Below, piece after piece: positions 1,523 through 13,037 of a stretch of DNA of 13,037 nucleotides (positions are counted from its first letter, which is position 1; each line of letters begins with the position of its first letter). The translations under genes were made by a program, and so were the position numbers. Source of the DNA: Nitrospirota bacterium (GTDB taxonomy: Bacteria; Nitrospirota; UBA9217); contig CAWCKW010000011.1 in the NCBI GenBank assembly GCA_963796285.1, positions 1 to 13,037 on the forward strand, in the 5' to 3' direction. A model generated the notes under the pieces. It was not told the DNA's origin. It saw only the letters and a program-made list of their open reading frames with translations, and did no database searches.

Positions 1523-1793
1523 AGTGTCTCCTGCCGGATAATTTGCTTTGACGTAGTTTCATATTACCCGTTTTACCGCATTCACGCAAATAAATCACTC
1601 AATGGGAAGAACTGATTATGCTATAAGCCGAAAGAAAAGGGAGAACCAGTTGATGTCCGAACGGAACCGTTCCACTACCCCCGTATTTTAAATATAAGTC
1701 CCTGCTTCAATATAGCAGATGGACAGGATTGCCCCTCAGTTTCCCTTTGTCAATCATCAATACCTTGTCCCGGGCAAGAGATCGGCGTCCACC

Positions 1794-2927
1794 CTACAAG
1801 CCTCTGTTCAGATTTTTCTTCAGCGCCTCGACAACGACATCAATCTCCGCCTCAGTCGTTTCTCTCCCCAGGCTGAAGCGAATAGCGCCGCGGGCAAGCG
1901 CGGGGTCCCTACCCATGGCGACCAGAACATGCGACGCATTCACCGTACTACCGTGGCACGCTGCGCCGGGAGAAACAGCAATATTTCTACCCAGTGCCTC
2001 CATGACCGCTATCGAATCGAACCCTTCAAAGCTTATGTTCCAGGTATTCGGAAGCTTTTTTTCAGGATGGCCGTTCAGATGCACCTTCAGTCCCGCGCGT
2101 TTCAGTCCTTCAAACAATCGCTGCCCGAGTTTAATCTGGCGGGGCCCCTCGGTATCCATGATCTCCGAAGCTACCATACATGCCGCGCCCAGCCCGACGA
2201 TGAACGCCGCGTTCTCCGTTCCCGGCCGCAGGCCGCGTTCATGTCCTGCCCCGTGCATCATCGGCTGAAGATTTCGGCCGCTTTTAATATACAAAGCGCC
2301 GATGCCTTTCGGAGCATAAAACTTGTGCCCGGCAATGGTCATGAAATCCATACCAAGATCCCCGACCTGCACGCGGACCTTGCCCACGCTCTGCGCAGCA
2401 TCGGTGTGGAACAGCACGTTACGGGCAGATGCTATTCTGCTCAGCGCCTTAATATCCTGGATCGTCCCGACCTCGTTGTTCGAATGCATGATCGTAACAA
2501 GCGCGGTATTCGGCGTGATCGCCTTTTCGAGGTCAGTTGGATTCACCATGCCGTATTTATCAACCGGCAGGTACGTTACCGTATACCCGAATCGTTCAAG
2601 ATTGCGGCAGGGTTCCAGGACTGCGGGATGCTCGATCTGTGACGTAATGAAGTGCTTCCCCTTGCCTGCTGCCTTGGCGATCCCCTTGATCACCATGTTG
2701 TTCGATTCCGTGGCCCCGCTCGTGAAGATGATCTCCGACGCCTTGCAACCCAGAAGCGCCGCGACTTGCTCGCGCGCCTGTTCGATGCCCGCCTTGAGCG
2801 CGACGCCGTAGGGATGGCTGCTCGATGGATTGCCGTATTTATTCTTCAGATACGGCAGCATTTCGTCGAGGACCCTCGGGTCGACAGGTGTGCTTGCGTT
2901 ATAGTCGAGATAGATGGGGTTCATCAT
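1794..2927 (-). CDS. Cysteine desulfurase, NifS/IscS-like (group I, PLP-dependent aminotransferase class V)
   Basis: Motifs IYLDYNASTP, YGNPSS, FTSGATESNN, HTDAAQSVGK, AGHKFYAPKG (PLP lysine), RPGTEN and SPGAAC (catalytic Cys loop). The start may be 2924. Confidence 0.95.
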   Translation of the reverse strand: MMNPIYLDYNASTPVDPRVLDEMLPYLKNKYGNPSSSHPYGVALKAGIEQAREQVAALLGCKASEIIFTSGATESNNMVIKGIAKAAGKGKHFITSQIEHPAVLEPCRNLERFGYTVTYLPVDKYGMVNPTDLEKAITPNTALVTIMHSNNEVGTIQDIKALSRIASARNVLFHTDAAQSVGKVRVQVGDLGMDFMTIAGHKFYAPKGIGALYIKSGRNLQPMMHGAGHERGLRPGTENAAFIVGLGAACMVASEIMDTEGPRQIKLGQRLFEGLKRAGLKVHLNGHPEKKLPNTWNISFEGFDSIAVMEALGRNIAVSPGAACHGSTVNASHVLVAMGRDPALARGAIRFSLGRETTEAEIDVVVEALKKNLNRGL

Positions 2928-2994
2928 ACAGATTATTCGTTAGCGTGGTTCGCTTCAGACCATCAAGATATGAAACGAACCTGACACAAAAGCG

Positions 2995-3079
2995 TCTCGC
3001 GCAAAGCCGCAAAGGCCGCAAAGGGTAAATCATGAATTCAGCCTTTTTTGGCGCGCTTGGCGGTACTCTTTGCGCGAAA
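2995..3079. repeat. Inverted repeat built from CGCAAAG units
   Basis: The left arm is tctcg-CGCAAAG-c-CGCAAAG-gc-CGCAAAG (2995-3023). The right arm is tttggcg-cg-cttggcgg-tact-ctttgcgcgaaa (3047-3079). Positions 2997-3006 pair perfectly with 3068-3077. Confidence 0.8.
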
Positions 3080-3202
3080 ATTGATTTTGACTTGACTTGA
3101 AAAAACCTGACTCAAAATTAAATATTTTGGTTTGTAAATTACTTAAAAAGATTGAACATGCAATGAAAGACGAAAAAAGATTTTACCTTTCAATCCTAAC
3201 TT

Positions 3203-4129
3203 CTAATGCCGGTTGAATATCCCCATGGTCATGTACCGCTCGCCGACATCAGGCAGGACCGTGACGACCCGCGCGCCTTTTCCGAGTTTCTTCGCCACCT
3301 GGAGCGCTGCCCAGCAAGCCGCACCGGACGAGATGCCTACGAGCATGCCTTCCTCCTGCGCAAGCCGCCGCGTCATGTCGGCAGCATCATCCTGGGTGAC
3401 CTTGATGATCCCGTCGTACACATCTGTGTTCAATATGACGGGAATGAACCCCGCTCCAATGCCCTGAATGGGATGCGGACCAGGCTGACCTCCCGAGAGC
3501 ACCGGAGAGGCGGATGGTTCGACCGCATAGATCGTGATGTCCTTGAACTTTTTCCTGAGCACCTCGCCCACGCCCGTGATCGTGCCGCCGGTCCCGACAC
3601 CTGCCACAAAGGCATCTATCTTCTTTGTGCCCATCTGTTTCAAGATTTCCTTTGCCGTGGTCCTCCGGTGCACCTGCGGGTTCGCGGGATTGCCGAACTG
3701 GTCGGGCTTGAAATATTCCTTGCTCGAGGCGACGATCTCATCGGCCTTGGCGATCGCGCCCTTCATGCCCTTTTCCGCTGGCGTCAGCACAAGCTCGGCG
3801 CCGTAGGCTTCGAGCAGCCTGCGGCGTTCGACCGTCATGGACTCGGGCATGGTGAGGACGATGGTGTAGCCCTTGACCGCGGCGACCATGGCGAGACCGA
3901 TGCCGGTATTGCCGCTCGTGGGCTCCACGATCTTCATGCCCTTTTTGAGCAGTCCCTTTTTCTCCGCGTCTTCGATCATGGCGAGCGCCGGCCGGTCCTT
4001 GACACTCCCTCCGGGGTTGAACCCTTCGAGCTTTGCCCACACCTCTGCATCGCCGGCGCCCGGCAGCTTATTCAGCTTTACCAAAGGCGTGTTCCCGATC
4101 AGGTCCAGCACTGTTTTAATCTTTGGCAT
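3203..4129 (-). CDS. cysK: Cysteine synthase A (O-acetylserine sulfhydrylase)
   Basis: 308 aa with motifs [51 protein letters not shown] and GISSGAA. Confidence 0.96.
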
Positions 4130-4175
4130 ATTCGTCCTATTCGTCCTTTCCGATGTCTTGGTCCCGCACTCTTCA

Positions 4176-4223
4176 CCCCGTTAGAAGTTGGGCGGGCAAT
4201 TCCGCCCGCGACTTCTAACGGGG
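4176..4223. repeat. REP/MITE-like palindrome between recN and cysK
   Basis: Perfect 13-bp inverted repeat CCCCGTTAGAAGT (4176-4188) / ACTTCTAACGGGG (4211-4223), enclosing an inner GGGCGG/CCGCCC stem. Confidence 0.85.
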
Positions 4224-4246
4224 CAAGCTCCGAACTCCAAACTTTT

Positions 4247-5947
4247 TTACGCTGCCCCCCGCTCGATCATCTCCTCGGCATGCTTGATCGTGGCCTCGGT
4301 GATGGTCTTTCCGCCGAGCATGCGCGCGATCTCGTCCACGCGTTCCTGTTTGTCGAGCAGCCGCACCTCGGTGCTCGTCCGGTCCTTCTTCACGGACTTG
4401 GTAACACCGTAGTGGCTCCCGGCCATGCTCGCGATCTGCGGCAGATGAGTGATGCAGAAGACCTGTCGTTTTAATGCCACGCGTTTGAGTTTTTTACCGA
4501 CCTCTTCCGCCACCGCCCCGCCGATCCCCGCGTCCACCTCGTCGAACACAAGCGTGGGGATGCTGTCGCCTTCCACCAGGATGGTCTTGAGCGCGAGCAT
4601 GATGCGCGAAAGCTCGCCGCCAGAGGCGATCTTTGCGAGCGGCTTCGGCTCCTCGCCCGGGTTCGGCGAGATCAGGAACTCCACGCGGTTCGCGCCGCGC
4701 GGCCCGAGCTTGAGGCCGTCAAACGTGTCTCCTCCGGGTTCCTGCGTGATCTTCACCGTAAAGGTCGTCTTCTTCATTCCGAGGTGGCTGAGCTCTGTCT
4801 CGACTTTCTTCTCGAGCTCCCGGGCCGCCGTTCTCCGCTTCTTCGTCAGTTGGTTCGCCTTGTCGGTCAATCCGAACTTGATCTCCTGGATCCCGGATTT
4901 CAATTTCTCGATCTCCTCGGTGCTCCGTTCCATGCGGTCGAGCGCAGCCGCCGCTTGTGTGCCGAAGTCGATGATTTCTTCGATCGTATTCCCGTACTTT
5001 TTTTTGAGCTTTTGGATCAGGTCCAGCCGGTCCCCGATCTGCTCCAGCCGCTGGGGATCGGACTCCACCCGGGTGTGGTATGACGTGATCTCCCGTGCAG
5101 CCTCTTCGATCTGCGCGCGGCCCGACTCGCACAGCTCAAGCGCACCCGCGAGGCTGGTGTCGATCTCGGCCAGGTCTTTCAGCCCGTTGATCGCCTTTTT
5201 CAGGCTTGCGAGCGCCGAATCGTCCGATGAATAGAGCGCCTCATCAGCCATGGCGGAAAGGGCCGCGAGCTTTTCAGTGTTTGCCAGGACCTTCTGTGCG
5301 TTCGCCAGCTCTTCTTCCTCACCCGGCTTGAGCTGGGCCGCTTCGATCTCATTCTTCTGGTATCGCAGCAGGTCCTCTCGCTGCGCTCGGTCGCGCTCGC
5401 CCTCCTGGAGTGTTGCCAGGTCCTTTCGAACGTCAAGCAACTTGCGATATGCGTCGATCACTTCATCGAGGAGTTCACCGTGCCCGCCGAAGGAGTCGAG
5501 CATCTCCATCTGGCGTTCGAGGGAGAGCAGCGACTGGTGCTCGTGCTGGCCGTGGATATCGGCAAGGTTCGCGCCCACTGCCGCGAGCGTGGTGAGGTTC
5601 GCCAGGCTCCCGTTGATATAGACCTTGTTCTTGCCCGAGGCAGAGAGCACCCGGCGTACGATCAGGTCCTCGCCCGGGTCCATCTCGATCCCCTGCTCCG
5701 ACAGCAGCTCCATCATCTCCGCTCTACTCCGCCCGTTCAGTTCGAAGGCCGCCTCCACCACGGCTTCCTGAGACCCGGTGCGGATCAGATCAGCGCTCGC
5801 ACGTTCGCCAAGAGCCAGGTTCAGCGCGTCCACCACGATGGACTTGCCTGCCCCGGTCTCGCCGGTGAAAACGTTCAGCCCGGGCGCGAACTCCACCCGG
5901 AGCTGGTCGATGATGGCGATATTTTTTATGTTCAGTTCTTTCAGCAT
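4247..5947 (-). CDS. recN: DNA repair protein RecN
   Basis: Starts MLKELNIKNIAIID at ATG 5947 (566 aa). It has Walker A TGETGAGKS, the IHGQHEHQ motif, a coiled coil, signature ASGGELSR, Walker B FDEVDAGIGG and CITHLPQIA. Confidence 0.97.
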   Translation of the reverse strand: MLKELNIKNIAIIDQLRVEFAPGLNVFTGETGAGKSIVVDALNLALGERASADLIRTGSQEAVVEAAFELNGRSRAEMMELLSEQGIEMDPGEDLIVRRVLSASGKNKVYINGSLANLTTLAAVGANLADIHGQHEHQSLLSLERQMEMLDSFGGHGELLDEVIDAYRKLLDVRKDLATLQEGERDRAQREDLLRYQKNEIEAAQLKPGEEEELANAQKVLANTEKLAALSAMADEALYSSDDSALASLKKAINGLKDLAEIDTSLAGALELCESGRAQIEEAAREITSYHTRVESDPQRLEQIGDRLDLIQKLKKKYGNTIEEIIDFGTQAAAALDRMERSTEEIEKLKSGIQEIKFGLTDKANQLTKKRRTAARELEKKVETELSHLGMKKTTFTVKITQEPGGDTFDGLKLGPRGANRVEFLISPNPGEEPKPLAKIASGGELSRIMLALKTILVEGDSIPTLVFDEVDAGIGGAVAEEVGKKLKRVALKRQVFCITHLPQIASMAGSHYGVTKSVKKDRTSTEVRLLDKQERVDEIARMLGGKTITEATIKHAEEMIERGAA

Positions 5948-5956
5948 AGTAAAGAT

Positions 5957-6058
5957 AGGGTCATGGGTCAAGTAGCAAGGGTCAAGTAACGTCAAATTCA
6001 AAATCACTCTGACCCCGGACCCGTGTCCCTTGACCCTTGACCCCTGACCCCTGACCCT
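5957..6058. repeat. Inverted pair of 7-bp tandem repeat arrays
   Basis: AGGGTCA-TGGGTCA-AGTAGCA-AGGGTCA (5957-5984) faces TGACCCC-GGACCCG-TGTCCCT-TGACCCT-TGACCCC-TGACCCC-TGACCCT (6010-6058). Confidence 0.9.
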
Positions 6059-6612
6059 TTTTTTACCGCATTCGCCTTCTTCATCGCAAAGCGCCCCTGG
6101 GTGGACGTTCCCTTCCCTCCGGCCTTGCGGTACAACTCCGCTGCCTGCTCTTTCCTGCCCATGCGTTCGCTCGCCCTGCCTGCCCAATAGTAAGCGGTGC
6201 CGACCCACATTCCGGATGTTGGATAACTCTCGGGTATTTTCAAGAATTCTGTCACCGCCTCGGCGTCTCTGCCAAGAAGAAAGGTGCAGAACCCGATCCA
6301 GTACTGGGTCTGCGCCCGTTCAGCAGGCTTCTGTTCTTTCAATGCACGGCGGTATGCATCGAGGGCACGCTGGTAATCTGTCAGGCGAAAAAAACTATCG
6401 GCGATCCGGGTATGGAGAACACCTGGGGAAATAGCGTGGGATGAAGAGGAAAGCACTGCCTGATATAATCGAATTGCTTCCGTGTATCGGCCTTGCGAGA
6501 AGAGCTGGTCCGCTTTTACATATTCCCGTGGAACACTCCGGATGCCGGCACTATGCGAAGTACCAGTGAGTGCAAAGATAATAAGGAAAGCGATAATAAA
6601 TATTCTTTTCAT
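6004..6612 (-). CDS. Secreted TPR protein (BamD/CpoB-like repeats)
   Basis: Probable start MKRIFIIAFLIIFALTGTSHSA (signal peptide), followed by TPR-like units ADQLFSQGRYTEAIRLY, QYWIGFCTFLLGRDAEAVTEF and AYYWAGRASERMG. The C-terminus runs into the heptamer array. Confidence 0.85.
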   Translation of the reverse strand: MKRIFIIAFLIIFALTGTSHSAGIRSVPREYVKADQLFSQGRYTEAIRLYQAVLSSSSHAISPGVLHTRIADSFFRLTDYQRALDAYRRALKEQKPAERAQTQYWIGFCTFLLGRDAEAVTEFLKIPESYPTSGMWVGTAYYWAGRASERMGRKEQAAELYRKAGGKGTSTQGRFAMKKANAVKKGSGVRGQGSRDTGPGSE

Positions 6613-6646
6613 AAGAATCATAAGAATCCCGTCCGCCAGTGTGTCA

Positions 6647-6675
6647 AATTTAACACAAAGCATGGGCCTATTCAA
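6647..6675 (-). promoter_or_regulatory. Putative sigma70 promoter for the TPR-recN-cysK run
   Basis: The minus strand reads TTGAAT-N17-TAAATT with an extended TGn, 34 nt upstream of the ATG at 6612. Confidence 0.5.
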
Positions 6676-6889
6676 GGATAATCTTTTCTAGAAATTTGAA
6701 ATATATTCAAAAAAGCAAGGGATTATCCCGGAGACAGGGCGGTAATGAGAAAGAATAAATCCTGCTATACATCGAACAATGTTTTGCCATGCCCTGATAT
6801 CCCACTTTCCCTTGACGACAAGAGGAGACTTGTGGCAGAGTATAATGGACAAGCAGAACGACAAAGTAAAAAACTAAAAGGCATCTCTC

Positions 6890-6988
6890 GCGGAGGCGCG
6901 GAGCTCGCAGAGAAAAGCTTAAAATTGCTCTGGGTTAAGTCAAAGGATTAAAGGTTTTGATGTAACTCTGCGAGCTCCGCGGCTCTGC
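6890..6988. repeat. Inverted repeat built from CGCRGAG units with an AT-rich spacer
   Basis: CGCGGAGCTCGCAGAG (6897-6912) is the exact reverse complement of CTCTGCGAGCTCCGCG (6966-6981). Pairing extends imperfectly about 7 bp outward, and the spacer is 53 bp. Confidence 0.9.
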
Positions 6989-7113
6989 TTGTGCCCGCGT
7001 TATCGCAAGAGCAGGGTACGTGAAAATTGATTCCCATACTTTTTTCAGATTGATCGTTCCATAACTCAAGCAGCCTGAACATCCATTTCCCATGAGGCAG
7101 GACGGCTGTACCT

Positions 7114-7825
7114 ATGAACTGGCGTTTACTTGATTCTGGCCCCAATTTCGGCGCATACAACATGGCCGTTGATGAAGAACTGCTCGCGCGGGCACAGGCG
7201 GGCGAAACCCCACCTACACTCCGGTTCTACACCTGGCACCCGCCTACCGTTTCGATCGGCAGGTTCCAGAAGATCGGGACAGCAGTGGATGTCGAGGCCT
7301 GTCGCCAACGGGGCATCGACATCGTGAGGCGCATCACCGGCGGAAGGGCGGTCCTCCACGACCGGGAACTAACGTACAGCATCATCGCGCGCACGGACGA
7401 TCCCTTGTTTCCCACGAATGTCCACGGCACCTACAAGATCATCGCCGCCGGCCTTCTGCAGGGGCTCAGGAACCTCGGCATTCCCGCCGAGATGGTATCG
7501 CGTTCCAGCCGCCACGCCGCGCTCGTAAAAAAAGACTCAAAAGATCCCGCGTGCTTCTCCTCCCCTTCCTGGTACGAGATCCTCGTGCACAACAGAAAGA
7601 TCATCGGCAGCGCACAGCGCAGGCTGTCGGGCGCATTTCTCCAGCACGGTTCGATCCTCATTGGACTACGATCCCACGCTCGAGGCCGAGGTCATCCGCG
7701 GCGGCGGCAGTGGTGAGGTGGTCACTTCGATCAACCAGGAACTCGGCAGGGATGTTCCTCTTGCAGAAGTGAAGCAGGCGTTCATAAAAGGGTTTTCCGA
7801 AGCGCTGGGAATCGTCTTCACTTAA
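7114..7825 (+). pseudogene. lipM: LipM-like octanoyltransferase / lipoate-protein ligase family gene with a +1 frameshift near 7660-7664 (pseudogene or sequencing error)
   Basis: Motifs NMAVDEELL, PTLRFYTW, RRITGGRAVLH, ACFSSPSWYEI, RKIIGSAQRR and LQHGSIL. After ATTG the shifted frame continues DYDPTLEAEVIRGGGSGEVVTSINQELGRDVPLAEVKQAFIKGFSEALGIVFT to TAA at 7823-7825, giving 236 aa if repaired. Confidence 0.85.
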
Positions 7826-7857: not shown

Positions 7858-8373
7858 ATGGTGTTACAGGCTCACAGCAGACATTTGAAGCACGGACGTT
7901 CCTTGATGGAAAAAGCAAATTACTTGATAATGATTTCTGCTGTTGCCCTCCTGGCCTGCGGTTCCACCTTTGCCGCCGAGCTCCATGACTTTACCAGCGA
8001 CGGCTGCAGTTTATTCCCGGACGGCAACATGAAAGACCGGGCGCTTTGGTGCGATTGCTGCCTGACCCATGATATCGCTTATTGGCAGGGGGGAACGAAG
8101 GAGGACCGCAAACACGCAGATGAAGTTCTGCGTGATTGCGTGCTCCAGAATACGGGCAGCAAGGCCCAGGCGGACATGATGTATAACGGTGTCCGAGCAG
8201 GCGGACATCCCGCGTTCCTCACGTGGTATCGCTGGGGATATGGCTGGAAATATGGTAAGGCATATGCTCCGCTCACGAAGCAGGAGAGACAGCAGGTCCG
8301 GGAGAAGCTGGACGCCTATTATAAAAAGCATCCTTCAGGTTACTGCCGGGAGGCACATGGAGATATGAAGTGA
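7858..8373 (+). CDS. Secreted Cys-rich protein, prokaryotic phospholipase A2-like
   Basis: GGGAGG Shine-Dalgarno upstream (alternative ATG at 7906) and a signal-like hydrophobic stretch. Motifs FTSDGCS, WCDCCLTHDIAYWQGG, ADEVLRDCV and MYNGVRAGG resemble the CCxxHDxxY active-site helix of secreted PLA2 folds. Confidence 0.7.
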   Translation: MVLQAHSRHLKHGRSLMEKANYLIMISAVALLACGSTFAAELHDFTSDGCSLFPDGNMKDRALWCDCCLTHDIAYWQGGTKEDRKHADEVLRDCVLQNTGSKAQADMMYNGVRAGGHPAFLTWYRWGYGWKYGKAYAPLTKQERQQVREKLDAYYKKHPSGYCREAHGDMK

Positions 8374-8428
8374 GAGAAGAAAGAACGCAAACCTGGATAC
8401 AAATCTGCACGTATGGCTGACTTGTTTC

Positions 8429-8521
8429 CCTCCGGGAATTTTCGCGCAATGAAAATATAAACGCCTTCTGTTCCAAAACCGCATTAAATTGCGAACGAAT
8501 GTCTTCCGGGATAAGCTGCAT
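8429..8521 (-). pseudogene. intI: Truncated 5' stub of a probable integron integrase
   Basis: A strong AAGGAG Shine-Dalgarno precedes ATG and MQLIPEDIRSQFNAVLEQKAFIFSLRENSRR. From recall, not a search, this resembles the N-terminal extension of long integron integrases in Desulfobacterota/Nitrospirota. It is divergent from an attI-like site and cassette, where intI would be expected. Confidence 0.55.
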
Positions 8522-8621
8522 GGTCTCCTTCTGGAATTAGCTAATACCGAATTTGCATATTAGTCAATTGCTCGAAGTTCAATTAAATCCGCAAGATACG
8601 TCAAGTTTTTTCTTAAATTCA

Positions 8622-8651
8622 TTGACTCACAAATCGGTTCCATGCTACTGT
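8622..8651 (+). promoter_or_regulatory. Putative cassette promoter (Pc-like)
   Basis: TTGACT (8622-8627)-N18-TACTGT (8646-8651) with a TGn extension, pointing into the attI-like site. Confidence 0.45.
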
Positions 8652-8660
8652 GTTCCGTAC

Positions 8661-8679
8661 CGCTAATTACTGGTTAGTC
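8661..8679 (+). mobile_element. attI-like simple site (L box, 5-bp spacer, R box)
   Basis: The sequence is CGCTAAT-tactg-GTTAGTC. GTTAGTC is complementary at 6 of 7 positions to the R'' box GACCAAC of the downstream attC, as expected for an integrated cassette. Confidence 0.65.
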
Positions 8680-8691
8680 ACAGGAATGAAG

Positions 8692-9096
8692 ATGCAAAAA
8701 GATATCATAATAATTATCGCTTCATTGCTGATCTCAATCTCCTTTCTTTTTTTGCTTCGTCCTAAAGTAAAAAATGATGAAACAGCACTTATATACAAGA
8801 TGGACTCGTCTTACCTAATAGTATTAACTGGAACTAGATATCTGATGGTACATGACCCAATCTCTGCTCTTTTAGGCAAGACATACAATGAGACATACAA
8901 AATAATAGTGCCGCGAATAAATGGCGTTGTGTCGGGATCTGAGATTCCCGTAGAAAAAGGATATTATCGTTACGAAGGGCAAATTGAATTTAGAGACAAC
9001 AAGATGAGCATAAATCTGTATGCCGACAACTACGAAGACAAAAAGAAAGACGCTCTTTCATGGAATGGTGAATATTCCTTTGTCTTAAACAAGTAA
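8692..9096 (+). CDS. Hypothetical membrane-anchored protein, integron gene cassette ORF
   Basis: Visibly AT-rich ORF (134 aa from ATG 8692; alternative ATG 8686) with AGGA upstream and an N-terminal hydrophobic helix IIIIIASLLISISFLFLL. It starts 12 nt after the GTTAGTC core and stops 1 nt before the attC. Confidence 0.8.
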   Translation: MQKDIIIIIASLLISISFLFLLRPKVKNDETALIYKMDSSYLIVLTGTRYLMVHDPISALLGKTYNETYKIIVPRINGVVSGSEIPVEKGYYRYEGQIEFRDNKMSINLYADNYEDKKKDALSWNGEYSFVLNK

Positions 9097-9097
9097 C

Positions 9098-9157
9098 GAC
9101 CAACCTGCGGGTCGAGACCGACGCGCAAACGACGCGCGTCTCACCCGCGCGTTACGA
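9098..9157 (+). mobile_element. Integron attC site (60 bp)
   Basis: The sequence is GACCAAC-ct-GCGGGT-c-GAGAC-c-G-a-CGCG-caaacga-CGCG-C-GTCTC-ACCCGC-gc-GTTACGA. It has AAC/GTT ends, a long stem and unpaired bases at 9113, 9119 and 9121 (G, G, T on the bottom strand). Confidence 0.88.
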
Positions 9158-9272
9158 GGCCATCAAGGGGGTTCGTAAATCGCTAAAAGGCTGAATCTCT
9201 CATTGCGCAATCCTTTTGATGTGCCGGGTTCATCCTTGGTTATTCGTTGTTTCGCAGCCCATCTGTTCTTCC

Positions 9273-9301
9273 TTTACATTCCTGTCGTGTTGTGATAAAA
9301 A
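9273..9301 (+). promoter_or_regulatory. Putative sigma70 promoter immediately upstream of the Omp85 gene
   Basis: TTTACA-N17-TAAAAA with a TGn extension, ending 6 nt before ATG 9308. Confidence 0.35.
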
Positions 9302-9307
9302 TTCTTC

Positions 9308-12058
9308 ATGAAATCATTGTGCTGGTTGGCCGGGTGGTTCCTGATGATCATGCTTATCTCCCCGGTCCATGCGTTAGCTGGTTCCTATTCCGGGATGACG
9401 ATAACCCGGATCGAGGTCAAGGACGACCGCGGCGAACCCTGGCCCATGCCCGGGCAAGTGCTGCCGCTCATCGTGGTGAAGCCGGGAGACATTCTAACCG
9501 GCTCTGCTGTCCGCGAAGGGATCGCAACGCTCTATCTGAAAGGGATCTTTAAAGACATCCGGGTCGAGGCCTTCCCCGACGATGGCGGCGTTCGGCTCGA
9601 ATATGTCGTAACGCCGATCACGATCGTGGACACGATTGCCATCCATGGCAATAGCGCCGTGTCCACAGGCACGATCCTGGATATGCTCGCCAGTATCCAG
9701 GGGAAGGAACTGCACGAAGAGAAGCTTGCCTCACTTAAGGCATCCCTCCTTGCCTATTACCAATCAGAAGGGTTTTATGACGCGTCCGTGGCCTTCCGAA
9801 GCGAACCCCTCAAAGAACCGAACCGTGTCGCCCTCCATGTAGATATCCGGGAGTCAATTCCGACCCTTCTGGCAGACATCACCTTTTCCGGCAATAGCGT
9901 GTTCAAGGACAAACAACTCCTCAGGGCCATGAAAAGCAAAAAAGGATCGCGACTGAAACGCGAGCTTCTTCTGGATACGGACAGGGAAGCTATCCTGAAA
10001 AAATATTTGAACGCGGGTTATCCGGTGGCGAAAGTCGGGCCGATCGACACGAGCTTCAGGGACTCTCGTGCATTCGTGCACATCCAGTGCGACGAGGGAC
10101 CGCGCGTCATTACCCGGTTCACCGGCAACCGCGAGTTCAGCGCCAAGACGCTTACGCAAAACCTGCTGATCTGGTCGGAGCATGACGTCTCGGACTCCGT
10201 CGTCGATAGCAGTGTTGATAAGATCAAGGCCCTGTACCGGGAAAAGGGTTATGCCGAGGTGGCAATAGATGTAATAAAAACAGAGCAACCGGGTCTGCTC
10301 GACCTGGAATTCAAAATCCAGGAAGGGCCGCGGGTGATGGTAAAAGAGATCTCGGTCCGGGGAAACACCGTATTCACTGCCAAGGACATCAAAAAGCAGA
10401 TGGCGCTGCGAGAACCCGGCTGGTTCACATCACATCCCTTTCGGGAAGACCTCCTGGACAAGGACGTCGAAAACCTCCGCAATCGGTACCTTGATACCGG
10501 CTATTTGTCCGTGGCCGTGAAGCAAAAAACCGTCATGAGCAGCGACAAAAGCTCGGCAGCAGTGATGATCGAGATCGTCGAAGGACCGCAGACCAGGACA
10601 GGCAGTATTACGTTTGAAGGGAACACCGCCTTCACCGTGGCAAAGCTGCTGGACACGGTAATCCTGAAACCGGGCACACCGTTCAACGAACGGCTTATAG
10701 ACGAGGACAAATACCGGATCCTGATGGCGTACTCAAACAAGGCATACCTCTATGCCAGGGTGGATGTGGAAAAAACCCCTCATGACGGGACCGTCGACGT
10801 CCACTACCGGATCACCGAGGACCGTCCTGTCTCGATCGGCAGGATCATCCTGCGGGGGAACGTGCGGACCAGTGACGAGGTGATCATGCGCGAACTGCTG
10901 GTGAAAGAGGGGGACCCTTACGACTACGGGGCCCTCCTCACGAGCCAGCAGCGGATCTACCATTTCGGCTATTTCCGGGTGGCCAGGTTCGATCCCGTTC
11001 ATCCCGGCGAAAAGGAATACATTACAGACATGCTGTTCACGGTCGAAGAAAGACCTGCGGGCGCCGTGGAGTTCAGCGTGGGCTACGGCAGCCTGGACCG
11101 GCTCCGGGGTTCCGTGGAGGTCTCGTACCGGAACCTCTGGGGCACGGCACGGTACGCGAGCCTTCGGTACGAGCAGAGCGACATCCTCAAGCGCGCGATC
11201 TTTAATTTTCAGCAACCCTGGATCCTGGGCCATAAACTCGAGAACAAGTTCAGCCTCGTGTGGTCTGATTCCGAGAAGCTGAACTCCGACACCCGCGAGA
11301 TCTATTATAAATCGCGCAAAACAGTTGCCTCCTTCGGAGTTGAAAAGACCTTCAAGAATCTGACGCCTTCCCTGACGTACCAGTTCGAGAATGTCGTCAA
11401 CTATGACGTGCTGCAGGCGGCTGAGCTCACCACTGAGGACAGCGGCCGCGTGCTGGTGAGCAGTCTGAGTCCTGCCCTGGTCTGGGACCTGCGCGACGAT
11501 GTATTCAACCCGAAGAGAGGGGCGCTCTACGGGATCATTCTGAAGGAGGCTTTGCGGGAGCTGTGGTCGCAGGCGGACTTCTCAAAACTCACCGTCCAGG
11601 GAAGCTGGTTCCTGCCGATCGATACCGCGGTGCTCGCTTTATCAGTACGTGCAGGAATGGCATGGCCCTTCCGCGATACAATCGAAGTCCCGCTCCACGA
11701 GCGGTTCTATGCGGGCGGCAGCACCACGGTGCGGGGCTTCACCCAGGACTCCATCGGCCCGAGCGGCGTCGATGCGAACGGGAACCTGATCCCGACGGGA
11801 GGATCGAGCATGATAGTACTGAATGTGGAACTCCGTCTGAATCCCGGAGAGGGATTCGGCGTCGTCCTCTTTTGCGATGCCGGTAATGTGTGGGTGTCAC
11901 AAGAGATCGACGTTGGAAACCTCCGTTCCGCGTGCGGCCCAGGGATCCGGTACGGCACACCCGTCGGCCCCCTGAGGATCGACTACGGACAGAAGACGCA
12001 CCGGCTTCCCGGGGAAAGTCCGGGAGAACTTCATTTCAATATCGGCAATACGTTCTGA
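9308..12058 (+). CDS. bamA: Omp85-family outer membrane protein assembly factor (BamA/TamA-like) with about 7 POTRA domains
   Basis: 916 aa with a signal peptide, repeated POTRA starts (I.F.GN ... Y...GY), a beta-barrel with YRNLWG, DLRDDVFNPKRG, FYAGGSTTVRGF and GIRYGTPVGPLRIDYG, and C-terminal FNIGNTF. Confidence 0.93.
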   Translation: MKSLCWLAGWFLMIMLISPVHALAGSYSGMTITRIEVKDDRGEPWPMPGQVLPLIVVKPGDILTGSAVREGIATLYLKGIFKDIRVEAFPDDGGVRLEYVVTPITIVDTIAIHGNSAVSTGTILDMLASIQGKELHEEKLASLKASLLAYYQSEGFYDASVAFRSEPLKEPNRVALHVDIRESIPTLLADITFSGNSVFKDKQLLRAMKSKKGSRLKRELLLDTDREAILKKYLNAGYPVAKVGPIDTSFRDSRAFVHIQCDEGPRVITRFTGNREFSAKTLTQNLLIWSEHDVSDSVVDSSVDKIKALYREKGYAEVAIDVIKTEQPGLLDLEFKIQEGPRVMVKEISVRGNTVFTAKDIKKQMALREPGWFTSHPFREDLLDKDVENLRNRYLDTGYLSVAVKQKTVMSSDKSSAAVMIEIVEGPQTRTGSITFEGNTAFTVAKLLDTVILKPGTPFNERLIDEDKYRILMAYSNKAYLYARVDVEKTPHDGTVDVHYRITEDRPVSIGRIILRGNVRTSDEVIMRELLVKEGDPYDYGALLTSQQRIYHFGYFRVARFDPVHPGEKEYITDMLFTVEERPAGAVEFSVGYGSLDRLRGSVEVSYRNLWGTARYASLRYEQSDILKRAIFNFQQPWILGHKLENKFSLVWSDSEKLNSDTREIYYKSRKTVASFGVEKTFKNLTPSLTYQFENVVNYDVLQAAELTTEDSGRVLVSSLSPALVWDLRDDVFNPKRGALYGIILKEALRELWSQADFSKLTVQGSWFLPIDTAVLALSVRAGMAWPFRDTIEVPLHERFYAGGSTTVRGFTQDSIGPSGVDANGNLIPTGGSSMIVLNVELRLNPGEGFGVVLFCDAGNVWVSQEIDVGNLRSACGPGIRYGTPVGPLRIDYGQKTHRLPGESPGELHFNIGNTF

Positions 12059-12175
12059 CAGGAGATTACGCAGTACAAAGTTCAAAAAATTCAGCGTGGC
12101 CCTCTTCTTGGCCATTGTGGGAACAACTGCCGTTCTGAGGGTTAAATCCATGAGATTTGTGGAATCGGAGATCAC

Positions 12176-12811
12176 ATGAGCAGAATGCTTCATTGGGGTA
12201 TACTGACAGCTCTCCTTGTCATCGTCCTCCTGTTCCCCTTCGCCCTTCAGGCGGAACTCGTGGACCGCATCGTTGCCACGGTCAATACCGACGTCATCAC
12301 CGCGAGCGAGCTCAGCGCTGCGGTAGCGCTCAACCAGCGGCTCGGCAAAGCCGATAAGGACCGGACAGCCCTGGAGGCAACAACCCTCGAGGGTCTTATC
12401 AACCGCAGGCTGCTCGTCCAGGAGGCACATCGGCTCAAGTTCGTTGAAGTATCGGAACAGGATATCGGCGCAGAGGTCGAAAATGTCGTGAAACGATTCG
12501 CTTCGGAAAAGGAATTCAGCGATTTTCTGGCGGGGCTGGACATGACCCGTCAGGAACTTTCCCGCATGCTCGGCGAGCAGCTTCTGGCCGAGCGGTTTGT
12601 GGAAAAGAAGGTCGGACTGTTTGTGCGGGTGAGTCGGGAAGAGGAAGAGAGTTATTTCAACGGGCATGCCGCGGAGTTCAAGGACAAGCGTTTCCCGGAT
12701 GTCCAGAAAATGATCCTCGCCCTTCTGACGGAACAAAAGATGGGGTTACAGCTTGCCCAGTATCTGGCGGAACTCCGCGGAAGAGCGGACATCAGGATCA
12801 GCGCTCGCTGA
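12176..12811 (+). CDS. SurA N-terminal-domain periplasmic chaperone lacking a PPIase domain
   Basis: Signal peptide then AELVDRIVATVNTDVITASEL, LEGLINRRLLVQEA and C-terminal YLAELRGRADIRI. GGAG Shine-Dalgarno. No parvulin motif is visible. Confidence 0.85.
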   Translation: MSRMLHWGILTALLVIVLLFPFALQAELVDRIVATVNTDVITASELSAAVALNQRLGKADKDRTALEATTLEGLINRRLLVQEAHRLKFVEVSEQDIGAEVENVVKRFASEKEFSDFLAGLDMTRQELSRMLGEQLLAERFVEKKVGLFVRVSREEEESYFNGHAAEFKDKRFPDVQKMILALLTEQKMGLQLAQYLAELRGRADIRISAR

Positions 12812-12817
12812 CTGGGT

Positions 12818-12854
12818 TGCGCTGGTACCGCGGCAGGCCACAGAGCGCATTTTT
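12818..12854 (+). terminator. Possible weak intrinsic terminator after the surA-like gene
   Basis: TGCGCT (12818-12823) / AGCGCA (12844-12849) stem with an imperfect interior, followed by TTTTT. Confidence 0.3.
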
Positions 12855-12867
12855 ACAGCACGATCGG

Positions 12868-12897
12868 TTGACATCACAACAATGATTGTGCTATGGT
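12868..12897 (+). promoter_or_regulatory. Putative sigma70 promoter with a palindromic spacer
   Basis: TTGACA (12868-12873)-N18-TATGGT (12892-12897) with a TGn extension. The spacer contains ACAAT-G-ATTGT. Confidence 0.6.
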
Positions 12898-12922
12898 AGA
12901 AACACCAAGAGAGGAGGAGGCA

Positions 12923-13037
12923 ATGACGTATAATCGATCATTGATCTATGTTCTCACCGCCATGCTGAGCATGGCCGCTGCACCGGCATTTCCTGCGGAG
13001 GAGGTCTTCGACACTGCAACAGCTTCAAGACACCTGG
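12923..13037 (+). CDS. Partial CDS (5' end) of a secreted protein, truncated by the window edge
   Basis: GAGGAGGAGG Shine-Dalgarno, then ATG and an open frame MTYNRSLIYVLTAMLSMAAAPAFPAEEVFDTATASRHL with signal-peptide character. Confidence 0.8.
   Translation, partial: MTYNRSLIYVLTAMLSMAAAPAFPAEEVFDTATASRHL

Follow-up and report, generated by a model that had tools for sequence, protein, structure and literature searches.

We analysed a stretch of DNA upstream of bamA in a Nitrospirota bacterium, positions 8429 to 9157 of a window of 13,037 nucleotides, for the remains of an integron. The window is the whole 13-kb contig (C11) of a metagenome-assembled genome, G000, whose assembly is 96% complete with 5% contamination. 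It was compared within a set of 41 genomes made up of G000 itself and 40 relatives; loci are given L-numbers. An earlier reading of the sequence alone had proposed a fossil chromosomal integron here. Every element that it listed was recovered, at most about a base from where it had been placed. From left to right, the features of the locus are as follows.

8429..8521, minus strand: 5' stub of the integrase gene intI, the first 31 codons of the long-form integrase of this lineage (from translation, tblastn and the N-termini of the integrases of relatives)
8525..8530, minus strand: Shine-Dalgarno sequence AAGGAG of the stub, 3 nt from the ATG (read in the sequence)
8555..8565, no strand assigned: conserved box GCATATTAGTC (from alignments; its minus strand reads TAATAT, which resembles a −10 hexamer)
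8595..8607, no strand assigned: conserved box GATACGTCAAGTT in the intI-attI intergenic region (from alignments)
8622..8651, plus strand: candidate cassette promoter Pc, TTGACT (8622-8627), 18 nt ending in TGC, TACTGT (from conservation)
8661..8679, plus strand: putative attI core CGCTAAT-TACTG-GTTAGTC, crossover between G 8673 and T 8674 (homology ends at the GTT at 8673-8675)
8674..9151, plus strand: integrated gene cassette of 478 bp, starting at the TT of the GTT in attI and ending at the G of the GTT in R' of the attC (bounds set by the two junctions)
8692..9096, plus strand: cassette open reading frame (ORF) of 134 amino acids, alternative ATG at 8686 (from homologues and an AlphaFold2 model)
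9098..9157, plus strand: attC, with R'' GACCAAC (9098-9104), an imperfect stem, bulges on the 5' arm and R' GTTACGA (9151-9157) (from a covariance model, the fold and near-identical array copies)
9150..9245, plus strand: flank of ~100 bp between the last attC and the conserved bamA promoter (from alignment and BLAST; common only to the window, contig C12 of the same assembly and the genome G006)

The stub begins with an ATG at 8521-8519 on the minus strand and its translation opens MQLIPEDIRSQFNAVLEQKAFIFSLRENSRR. It corresponds to residues 1-31 of the 475-amino acid integron integrase (IntI) of G001, with 61% identity by tblastn. Similarity to intI ends at about 8429 at both the DNA and the protein level, which is where the sequence-only reading had let the element start, and roughly 430-490 remaining codons of intI are missing. 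That reading had described a stub of about 31 codons. This stands as the extent of the IntI homology, which ends at about codon 31, but not as the extent of the frame, which has no stop there and continues to one at 8273, after 82 codons, overlapping the 3' end of a plus-strand gene at 7858-8373. The assignment of the stub to the integron integrases was borne out, as it matches residues 1-31 of full-length IntI proteins from the same genus and the same family and no unrelated family.

IntI proteins above the TIGR02249 cut-off were found in 13 of the 41 genomes, in open frames of about 460-520 amino acids. Ten of these frames begin M-x-P-I-P, like the stub; their longer motif is M-x-P-I-P-x-D/E-I-L-x-x-F-N/D-A-V-L-x-Q-K-A-V..., followed by YRKWL(K/R)YYLDF. 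The IntI proteins of the family measure 463-517 amino acids and carry a conserved N-terminal extension of ~160 residues (MxPIP...YRKWLRYYLDF...SEQVRLFIEK...) ahead of the region covered by TIGR02249 (L017:1021-2448 and the other full-length loci among L012-L023). The extension is evident from the G001 enzyme, which scores 379.8 bits on TIGR02249 (cut-off 265) and in which the model begins at residue 161. Because the stub lies within this extension, which classical IntI proteins lack, a BLAST search against textbook integrases would probably have failed. The stub ORF had no match in Pfam, NCBIfam or PADLOC, and no remnant of the IntI C-terminus was found near the stub in any frame. The assembly yielded no intact intI; its best match to TIGR02249, at 225 bits against the cut-off of 265, is a C-terminal fragment of 203 amino acids on another contig. 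This fragment (minus strand, in L006, G000:C12:1310516-1311784) adjoins a plus-strand RelE/ParE-like toxin-antitoxin pair, after which comes an attC (1311726-1311784, 61 bits); neither a 5' part of intI nor an attI is present there.

Positions 8430-8730 align with the regions upstream of intI in ten relatives, in which 8522-8675 corresponds to the intI-proximal part. The alignment contains the two boxes listed above and, beyond them, TTGAC(C/T), ATGCTAC and a core of the form (C/A)TAAT(A/T)ACT(T/G)GTT. The minus-strand TAATAT within the box at 8555-8565 could serve a promoter of intI. This box is present in two copies in relatives, and in the window, which is shorter here by about 37 bp, one copy is left. 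The first hexamer of the candidate Pc is kept as TTGAC in eight of the 11 aligned rows and TTGATA in two. Similarity among the window and its ten relatives stops at the GTT in nine of the 11 rows, the other two being cut by the ends of the loci. Three further copies of the module were found in G000 (C12:87402-87527, C12:977965-978255 and C13:357692-357935), and the four modules can be aligned as far as the same GTT, beyond which a different gene follows in each. A shared end point at GTT followed by different genes is the behaviour expected of an attI site, and by this comparison the core at 8661-8679 appears to be a site beside the start of intI at which cassettes are joined at GTT.

An attC site is an imperfect hairpin with an R'' box ending in AAC, an R' box starting with GTT and bulged bases on one arm. 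The 60-nt GC-rich hairpin at 9098-9157 folds at −20.3 kcal/mol, which is lower than all of 200 shuffled sequences (z −2.9), and its bulges are on the 5' arm. A covariance model, R1, was built from 11 attC sites, each taken from its AAC end to its GTT end, and contains no sequence of the window. The sites come from an array of G008, a genome of the same genus, where direct repeats 480-1309 bp apart follow an intact intI. RNAalifold returned for these 11 sites a 17-pair hairpin in which eight pairs show compensatory changes and unpaired columns are confined to the 5' arm. With filters off, R1 gave one significant match in the window, exactly at 9098-9157 on the plus strand (46.1 bits, E 2.5e-9), which is the result that the sequence-only reading had hoped for from an attC model, here a lineage-specific one. 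The minus strand of the same stretch scored 9.9 bits, and the next matches in the window at E <= 10, with both strands searched, scored 9.9 and 7.0 bits. A scan of the window against Rfam at E <= 1 gave no match.

As a control of its specificity, R1 at E <= 1e-4 matched 22 of 24 relatives of the same family, with 1-43 matches each, and gave one weak match each in four of 16 genomes of other families. The arrays of G001 and G020, beside intact intI genes, contain copies nearly identical to the window's attC (96% and 92% over ~50 nt). The boxes also pair as would be expected if a circular cassette had crossed over at G/TT. When reverse-complemented, R'' GACCAAC agrees with the leading core GTTAGTC at six of seven positions and with the integrated R' GTTACGA at three of seven, in line with the earlier proposal that the leading core should complement the cassette's own R''; ten cassettes of the G008 array show a like pattern, with a mean of 5.7/7 to the leading core against 4.4/7 to their own R'. 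Judged by predicted fold and comparison, the attC is structurally intact and belongs to the attC family found in the genus's intact integrons.

An integron cassette is a mostly promoterless single ORF between two crossover GTTs, with a leading core that complements its own R''. Here the plus-strand ORF at 8692-9096 falls within the two GTT junctions at 8674-9151, and the leading core complements R'' as described. The ORF is AT-rich, with a GC fraction of 0.34-0.36 against about 0.55-0.6 around it. A collection of 5.8 billion proteins held seven other homologues, four at 76-80% identity and the rest at 34-56%, all unnamed and without a Pfam family. The ORF itself had no match in Pfam, NCBIfam or PADLOC. 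An AlphaFold2 model made from 21 sequences (predicted local distance difference test, pLDDT, 87.5) has an N-terminal membrane helix and an eight-strand beta domain, and the product is predicted to be a small membrane-anchored beta-rich protein. A Foldseek search of the model against the PDB gave no hit at E <= 0.001 (best template modelling score about 0.3), and the best match in the ESM Atlas, at 0.78, was below lead level. Loci of 20 distant homologues of the cassette ORF were followed up with a crude scan for AAC...GTT hairpins and with repeat finding. In one (L056) the homologue sits between two ~104-nt TAAC...GTTA hairpins, 91% alike, of a larger array, and in another (L039) it lies within an array of TAAC...GTTAG repeats. 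Since these two homologues sit in arrays, the gene family recurs as a cassette.

We consider 8429-9157 to be, very probably, a degraded chromosomal integron platform with one cassette. It is a remnant that has no recombinase gene yet keeps its docking site, one captured gene and the recombination hairpin of that gene. The fossil-integron interpretation is therefore supported, and the findings named in advance as able to overturn it fell wholly or partly in its favour. The locus does not fit the defined classes. A complete integron has an intI for a tyrosine recombinase with the IntI-specific additional domain, and here 31 codons of the N-terminal extension are left. A CALIN (cluster of attC sites lacking integron-integrases) has at least two attC sites close together, and R1 finds one in the 13-kb window, to which a general attC model might add sites of other types. 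An In0 element has an intact intI and no attC, and here intI is truncated and an attC is present. What is left is a one-cassette remnant that retains a 5' stub of intI and an attI that can still be recognised, and it is not a complete integron, an In0 or a CALIN as defined.

A deletion from codon 32 on would have taken out intI and juxtaposed the conserved hypothetical gene at 7858-8373 with the stub. Because the assembly holds no intact IntI, the cassette would no longer be excisable or replaceable in cis and would be fixed in the first slot. It may be transcribed from the conserved outward-facing promoter-like sequence TTGACT-18-TACTGT. Both att sites could still be substrates if a matching IntI came in trans.

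The 251-bp stub-plus-attI region was used as a query against the nine genomes of the genus and found 17 loci in six of them. By tblastn with the G001 IntI, two of these loci stand beside a full-length gene and 13, the window included, have a truncated intI or none; two at contig ends were not judged. The 13 loci keep 0, 23, 25, 29, 31, 31-45, 41, 49, 57 or 92 codons of intI. An R1 attC follows downstream in nine of the 16 loci searched (E <= 0.1), and 11 of 14 orphans retain the crossover GTT. One genome, G005, has a single intact intI and four orphan attI loci. In the G000 orphan C12:977k (L070, C12:977837-978255), codon 49 runs straight into the final six codons of intI (...SPLDF, stop), which implies an internal deletion; its orthologue in G004 (on C21) keeps 92 codons and has a different sequence right after the GTT. 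Across these loci, integrase loss is thus recurrent and independent in the lineage, with the promoter-attI-cassette part persisting. No shared motif, of the kind that would point to deletions made by the integrase, was evident at the intI deletion junctions of eight stubs.

Some of the copies have features of their own. One orphan in G000 (L065, C12:86368-87527) has no stub and is followed by a cassette of 321 amino acids that ends in a 75-bit attC; another (L075, C13:357692-357935) has a 29-codon stub. In two attI copies, those of L064 and L020, an attC that starts ...CCAAC sets in no more than ~10 nt after the GTT, and the first 'cassette' is a mini-unit without an ORF.

Downstream of the attC, bamA occupies 9308-12058 and encodes Omp85 and POTRA domains. 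A promoter-like TTTACA-18-AAAAAT at 9273-9302 is conserved in all seven bamA upstream regions compared and is probably the gene's own promoter, so that bamA would not need read-through from the cassette. On the other side, the gene at 7114-7716, here called lipB, belongs to the LplA/LipB family of lipoate/octanoate ligases (Pfam LplA-B_cat), with no NCBIfam model over its cut-off; the name lipM given to it in the sequence-only reading could not be established beyond this family assignment. Between lipB and the stub, the plus-strand gene at 7858-8373 encodes a conserved hypothetical protein of 171 amino acids with a sub-threshold match to DUF1353, a member of a large family (2419 matches, some named as Nitrospirota). 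Further from the locus, the window encodes a member of the YHS-domain (seleno)protein family at 109-579 on the minus strand (NF041384, 161 bits) and, at 881-1522 on the minus strand, a 213-amino acid TPR protein whose 72%-identical paralogue is a cassette in the array of C12 described below. A dispersed repeat of ~100-150 bp lies at 6877-7037, between the TPR gene and the lipoate-ligase gene, and has more than 15 copies with 74-98% identity on at least six contigs; a second short one, at 2964-3081, has copies on C3, C12 and C13 with 71-100% identity.

Contig C11 duplicates a part of C12 (G000:C12:1649493-1664799), with 91% identity over 1728-7812 and 98% over 9150-13037; the first 1.7 kb are not syntenic. 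Both lipB and bamA are intact on C11, and the C12 copies have in-frame stops (one TGA and one TAA). The duplication suggests two strains in one bin, or consensus errors. The two versions differ between 7813 and 9149, and the right breakpoint falls exactly at the attC GTT (9150/9151). In C12 the lipB-bamA interval measures 5.3 kb (C12:1655593-1660908, parts of which are in L002-L005) and contains a frameshifted transposase of the insertion sequence type, R1 attC sites at 1657313, 1658389 and 1660381 and a half site at 1659526. The cassettes there code for small membrane proteins, a RelE/ParE-like pair, an RsgA-like GTPase, the TPR protein and a cupin. No attI or stub was found in this version of the interval.

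Another species of the genus, G006, has two attC sites directly upstream of bamA, and its last cassette is a toxin-antitoxin-like pair. The last attC joins the same flank as in the window, reading GTTACAAGACC in G006 and GTTACGAGGCC in the window, and the genomes that share the flank at 9150-9245 are those with cassettes upstream of bamA. Because C12 and G006 carry other cassettes on the same GTTAC(G/A)AG flank, the array upstream of bamA is older than the window's version of it. The sequence-only reading had looked to the same interval in relatives for a full intI. None was seen; the intact intI genes of relatives lie elsewhere, and lipB and bamA, which are adjacent only in the window's genome and in G002, are unlinked in G001, G003, G005, G006 and G008. 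An orthology of the locus with the intact integrons of relatives was considered and is unsupported, lipB and bamA being absent from the intact-intI stretches that were fetched.

The duplication raises the question of whether assembly or binning joined strain variants into a chimeric C11, an artefact that the two levels of identity to C12, the non-syntenic first 1.7 kb and the 5% contamination of the bin would fit. Metagenome contigs from four public DNA sequencing runs of other samples (X1-X4) were aligned to 8200-9500. The stub junction is spanned by record 5 of X2 (8335-8522) and record 17 of X4 (8409-8559), and the joint of attI and cassette is bridged by record 1 of X1 (8637-8787). In X3, contigs begin to match at 9150/9151 after unlike sequence. 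These contigs fit both GTT junctions and speak against a chimeric left half. The intact lipB and bamA of C11, compared with the interrupted copies of C12, are a further point against an artefact. No contig of the four runs bridges 9096-9160, so that the joint from the cassette ORF through the attC to bamA comes from this assembly alone. We regard an artefact as improbable. Two further joints in X3 (8415 to 9150 and 8675 to 9100) were left unused, since each is seen in one contig, with 30 and 27 letters on the shorter side and 85% likeness. If the sequence is taken as it stands, the hairpin at 9098-9157 might still be a repetitive extragenic palindromic (REP)-like repeat or a transcription terminator of the small ORF, being a GC-rich stem-loop directly after a stop codon with a few dispersed copies in the genome. 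It has no T-run after it, a terminator scan picked out only a five-pair piece on the minus strand (9114-9097), its ends are AAC and GTT, the model of array attC sites separates its two strands as described, and its closest copies are those in the arrays of G001 and G020; we give this explanation hardly any weight. Little more likely is that an integrase inserted a single cassette at a secondary GTT upstream of bamA and that the stub, promoter and attI are coincidental. Integration at secondary sites is one of the origins of CALIN that Cury et al. name (PMC4889954), and single attC sites are scattered in G000, where most of the 13 R1 matches at E < 1e-3 stand alone. The 250 bp upstream are homologous to the 5' end of intI and the spacer of ten relatives and this homology ends exactly at the GTT, which would not be expected at a random secondary site.

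More serious is the alternative that the locus is not dead and is one of several scattered attI docking and expression sites served in trans by a long-form IntI, either of the true host strain or transferred, so that cassette turnover continues. The genus-wide counts speak for it: 13 of the 15 assessable attI-like loci have lost all or part of intI, G005 has four orphans to one intact gene, and most orphans retain the crossover GTT. The orthologous orphans of G000 and G004 diverge right after that GTT. In X4, the contig of record 17 has the same stub junction, and another, record 18, matches 8554-8676 without a mismatch and then continues into unlike sequence. Against this, the assembly was found to have no intact IntI, and the X4 contigs, which share only 6 nt, could stem from separate genomes. 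The orthologous orphans may have come by their different cassettes before intI was deleted, and the core may be conserved simply through a recent origin; the case for use in trans is one of sequence comparison throughout. We think this unlikely, if by no means far-fetched. With the same reserve, the integron of the genus might be seen as a distributed system of attI-plus-promoter slots, the bamA-upstream locus among them, whose own intI genes were mostly lost by independent deletions (0-92 codons left) and whose first cassettes are still exchanged by one long-form IntI in trans; we offer this as a tentative possibility.

Several results weigh against a degraded integron platform or limit how closely it can be described. 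The labels 'attI' and 'intact attC' are structural and comparative calls. The 11 sites from which R1 was trained were chosen by eye from repeat families, and the R1 alignment of the window's attC has four non-standard pairs. Homologues of the cassette gene without att-like flanks had been named beforehand as evidence against the interpretation. L056 and L039 sit in attC-type arrays, but R1 found nothing at E <= 5 in any of the 20 loci and no clear attC was seen in the other 18. The TTGACT hexamer that had been proposed as a promoter is present and conserved at 8622-8627, but a scan with the sigma-70 consensus did not call the candidate Pc, whose second hexamer, TACTGT, matches three of six positions; we treat it as a putative promoter, conserved but weak in the second hexamer. 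None of the 20 sequencing runs listed with the stretch, each with a small share of it, is an RNA run. An intact ancestral integrase at exactly this locus is presumed. In G002, where lipB and bamA are 7.2 kb apart, R1 gave no match at E <= 1, and tblastn with lipB, bamA and neighbouring proteins found none of them in 17 loci around the intact intI genes and arrays of relatives. Finally, because C11 duplicates part of C12 at 91-98% identity in a bin with 5% contamination, it may come from a co-binned strain, and the absence of IntI is less certain for the true host.

The degraded platform upstream of bamA resembles the complete sedentary integrons of its genus and family, exemplified by G008:C3 (intI at 424803-426275, at least 11 cassettes), in the long-form N-terminus of intI, the spacer boxes, the GTT-ended attI core, the attC family and the divergent layout. 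It differs from them in having 31 codons of intI, one cassette and no intact IntI in the assembly. Like the CALIN and single attC sites described by Cury et al. (2016, PMC4889954) and for IntegronFinder 2.0 (PMC9024848), it has an attC cassette without a functional integrase nearby. The passages of these papers on CALIN give integrase loss from a complete integron as one proposed origin and report intI pseudogenes near 15 of 279 CALIN (PMC4889954). By their definition a CALIN has at least two attC sites, whereas here there is one, and a recognisable attI and 5' intI stub are kept. As described there, single attC sites are discarded, at least two attC sites are the default for CALIN, and pseudogenes are sought with a C-terminal profile (PMC4889954, PMC9024848). 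A lone attC, or an intI stub without the C-terminal domain, is therefore beyond standard detection, and the pipeline does not look for an attI and 5' stub such as those kept here. This agrees with the earlier expectation that pipelines would miss the locus.

Remnants in Treponema phagedenis (Wu et al., 2013, PMC3607928) are similar in that attC sites and cassettes are left in the chromosome after the loss of intI, and they are described as static. According to that account the Treponema remnant is in synteny with integrons that are intact in sister species, whereas here the intact integrons of relatives are at other loci and the genome contains several remnants. Nemergut et al. (2008, PMC2426708) report that nearly one third of intI genes are pseudogenes and that one fifth of integron-bearing bacteria have more than one intI. 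They also describe a 'clade 15' of deltaproteobacterial IntI proteins about 120 amino acids longer, through a fusion that the authors think functional, and by analogy the 160-residue extension found here resembles that ~120-residue lengthening. The pseudogenes in that work were found through the additional domain of IntI, as near-full-length genes with frameshifts or stops, whereas here only the first 31 codons of the extension remain. Taken together, these sources already document the loss of integrases, pseudogenes of intI, genomes with more than one integron and remnants that are static (PMC4889954, PMC9024848, PMC3607928, PMC2426708).

Since degraded integrons are known, this one locus adds a well-documented example and is no discovery in itself, and its value lies mainly in the pattern of orphan attI loci across the genus. 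It shows what the pipelines drop, namely a lone attC, an attI outside the classical classes and a stub that lies wholly within an N-terminal extension. The ~20 aligned copies define the attI core, the spacer boxes and the likely promoter for a non-proteobacterial lineage of integrons. The excess of orphan over intact attI loci, 13 to 2 among those that could be assessed, makes it testable how integrases are lost and whether the attI sites may be used in trans.

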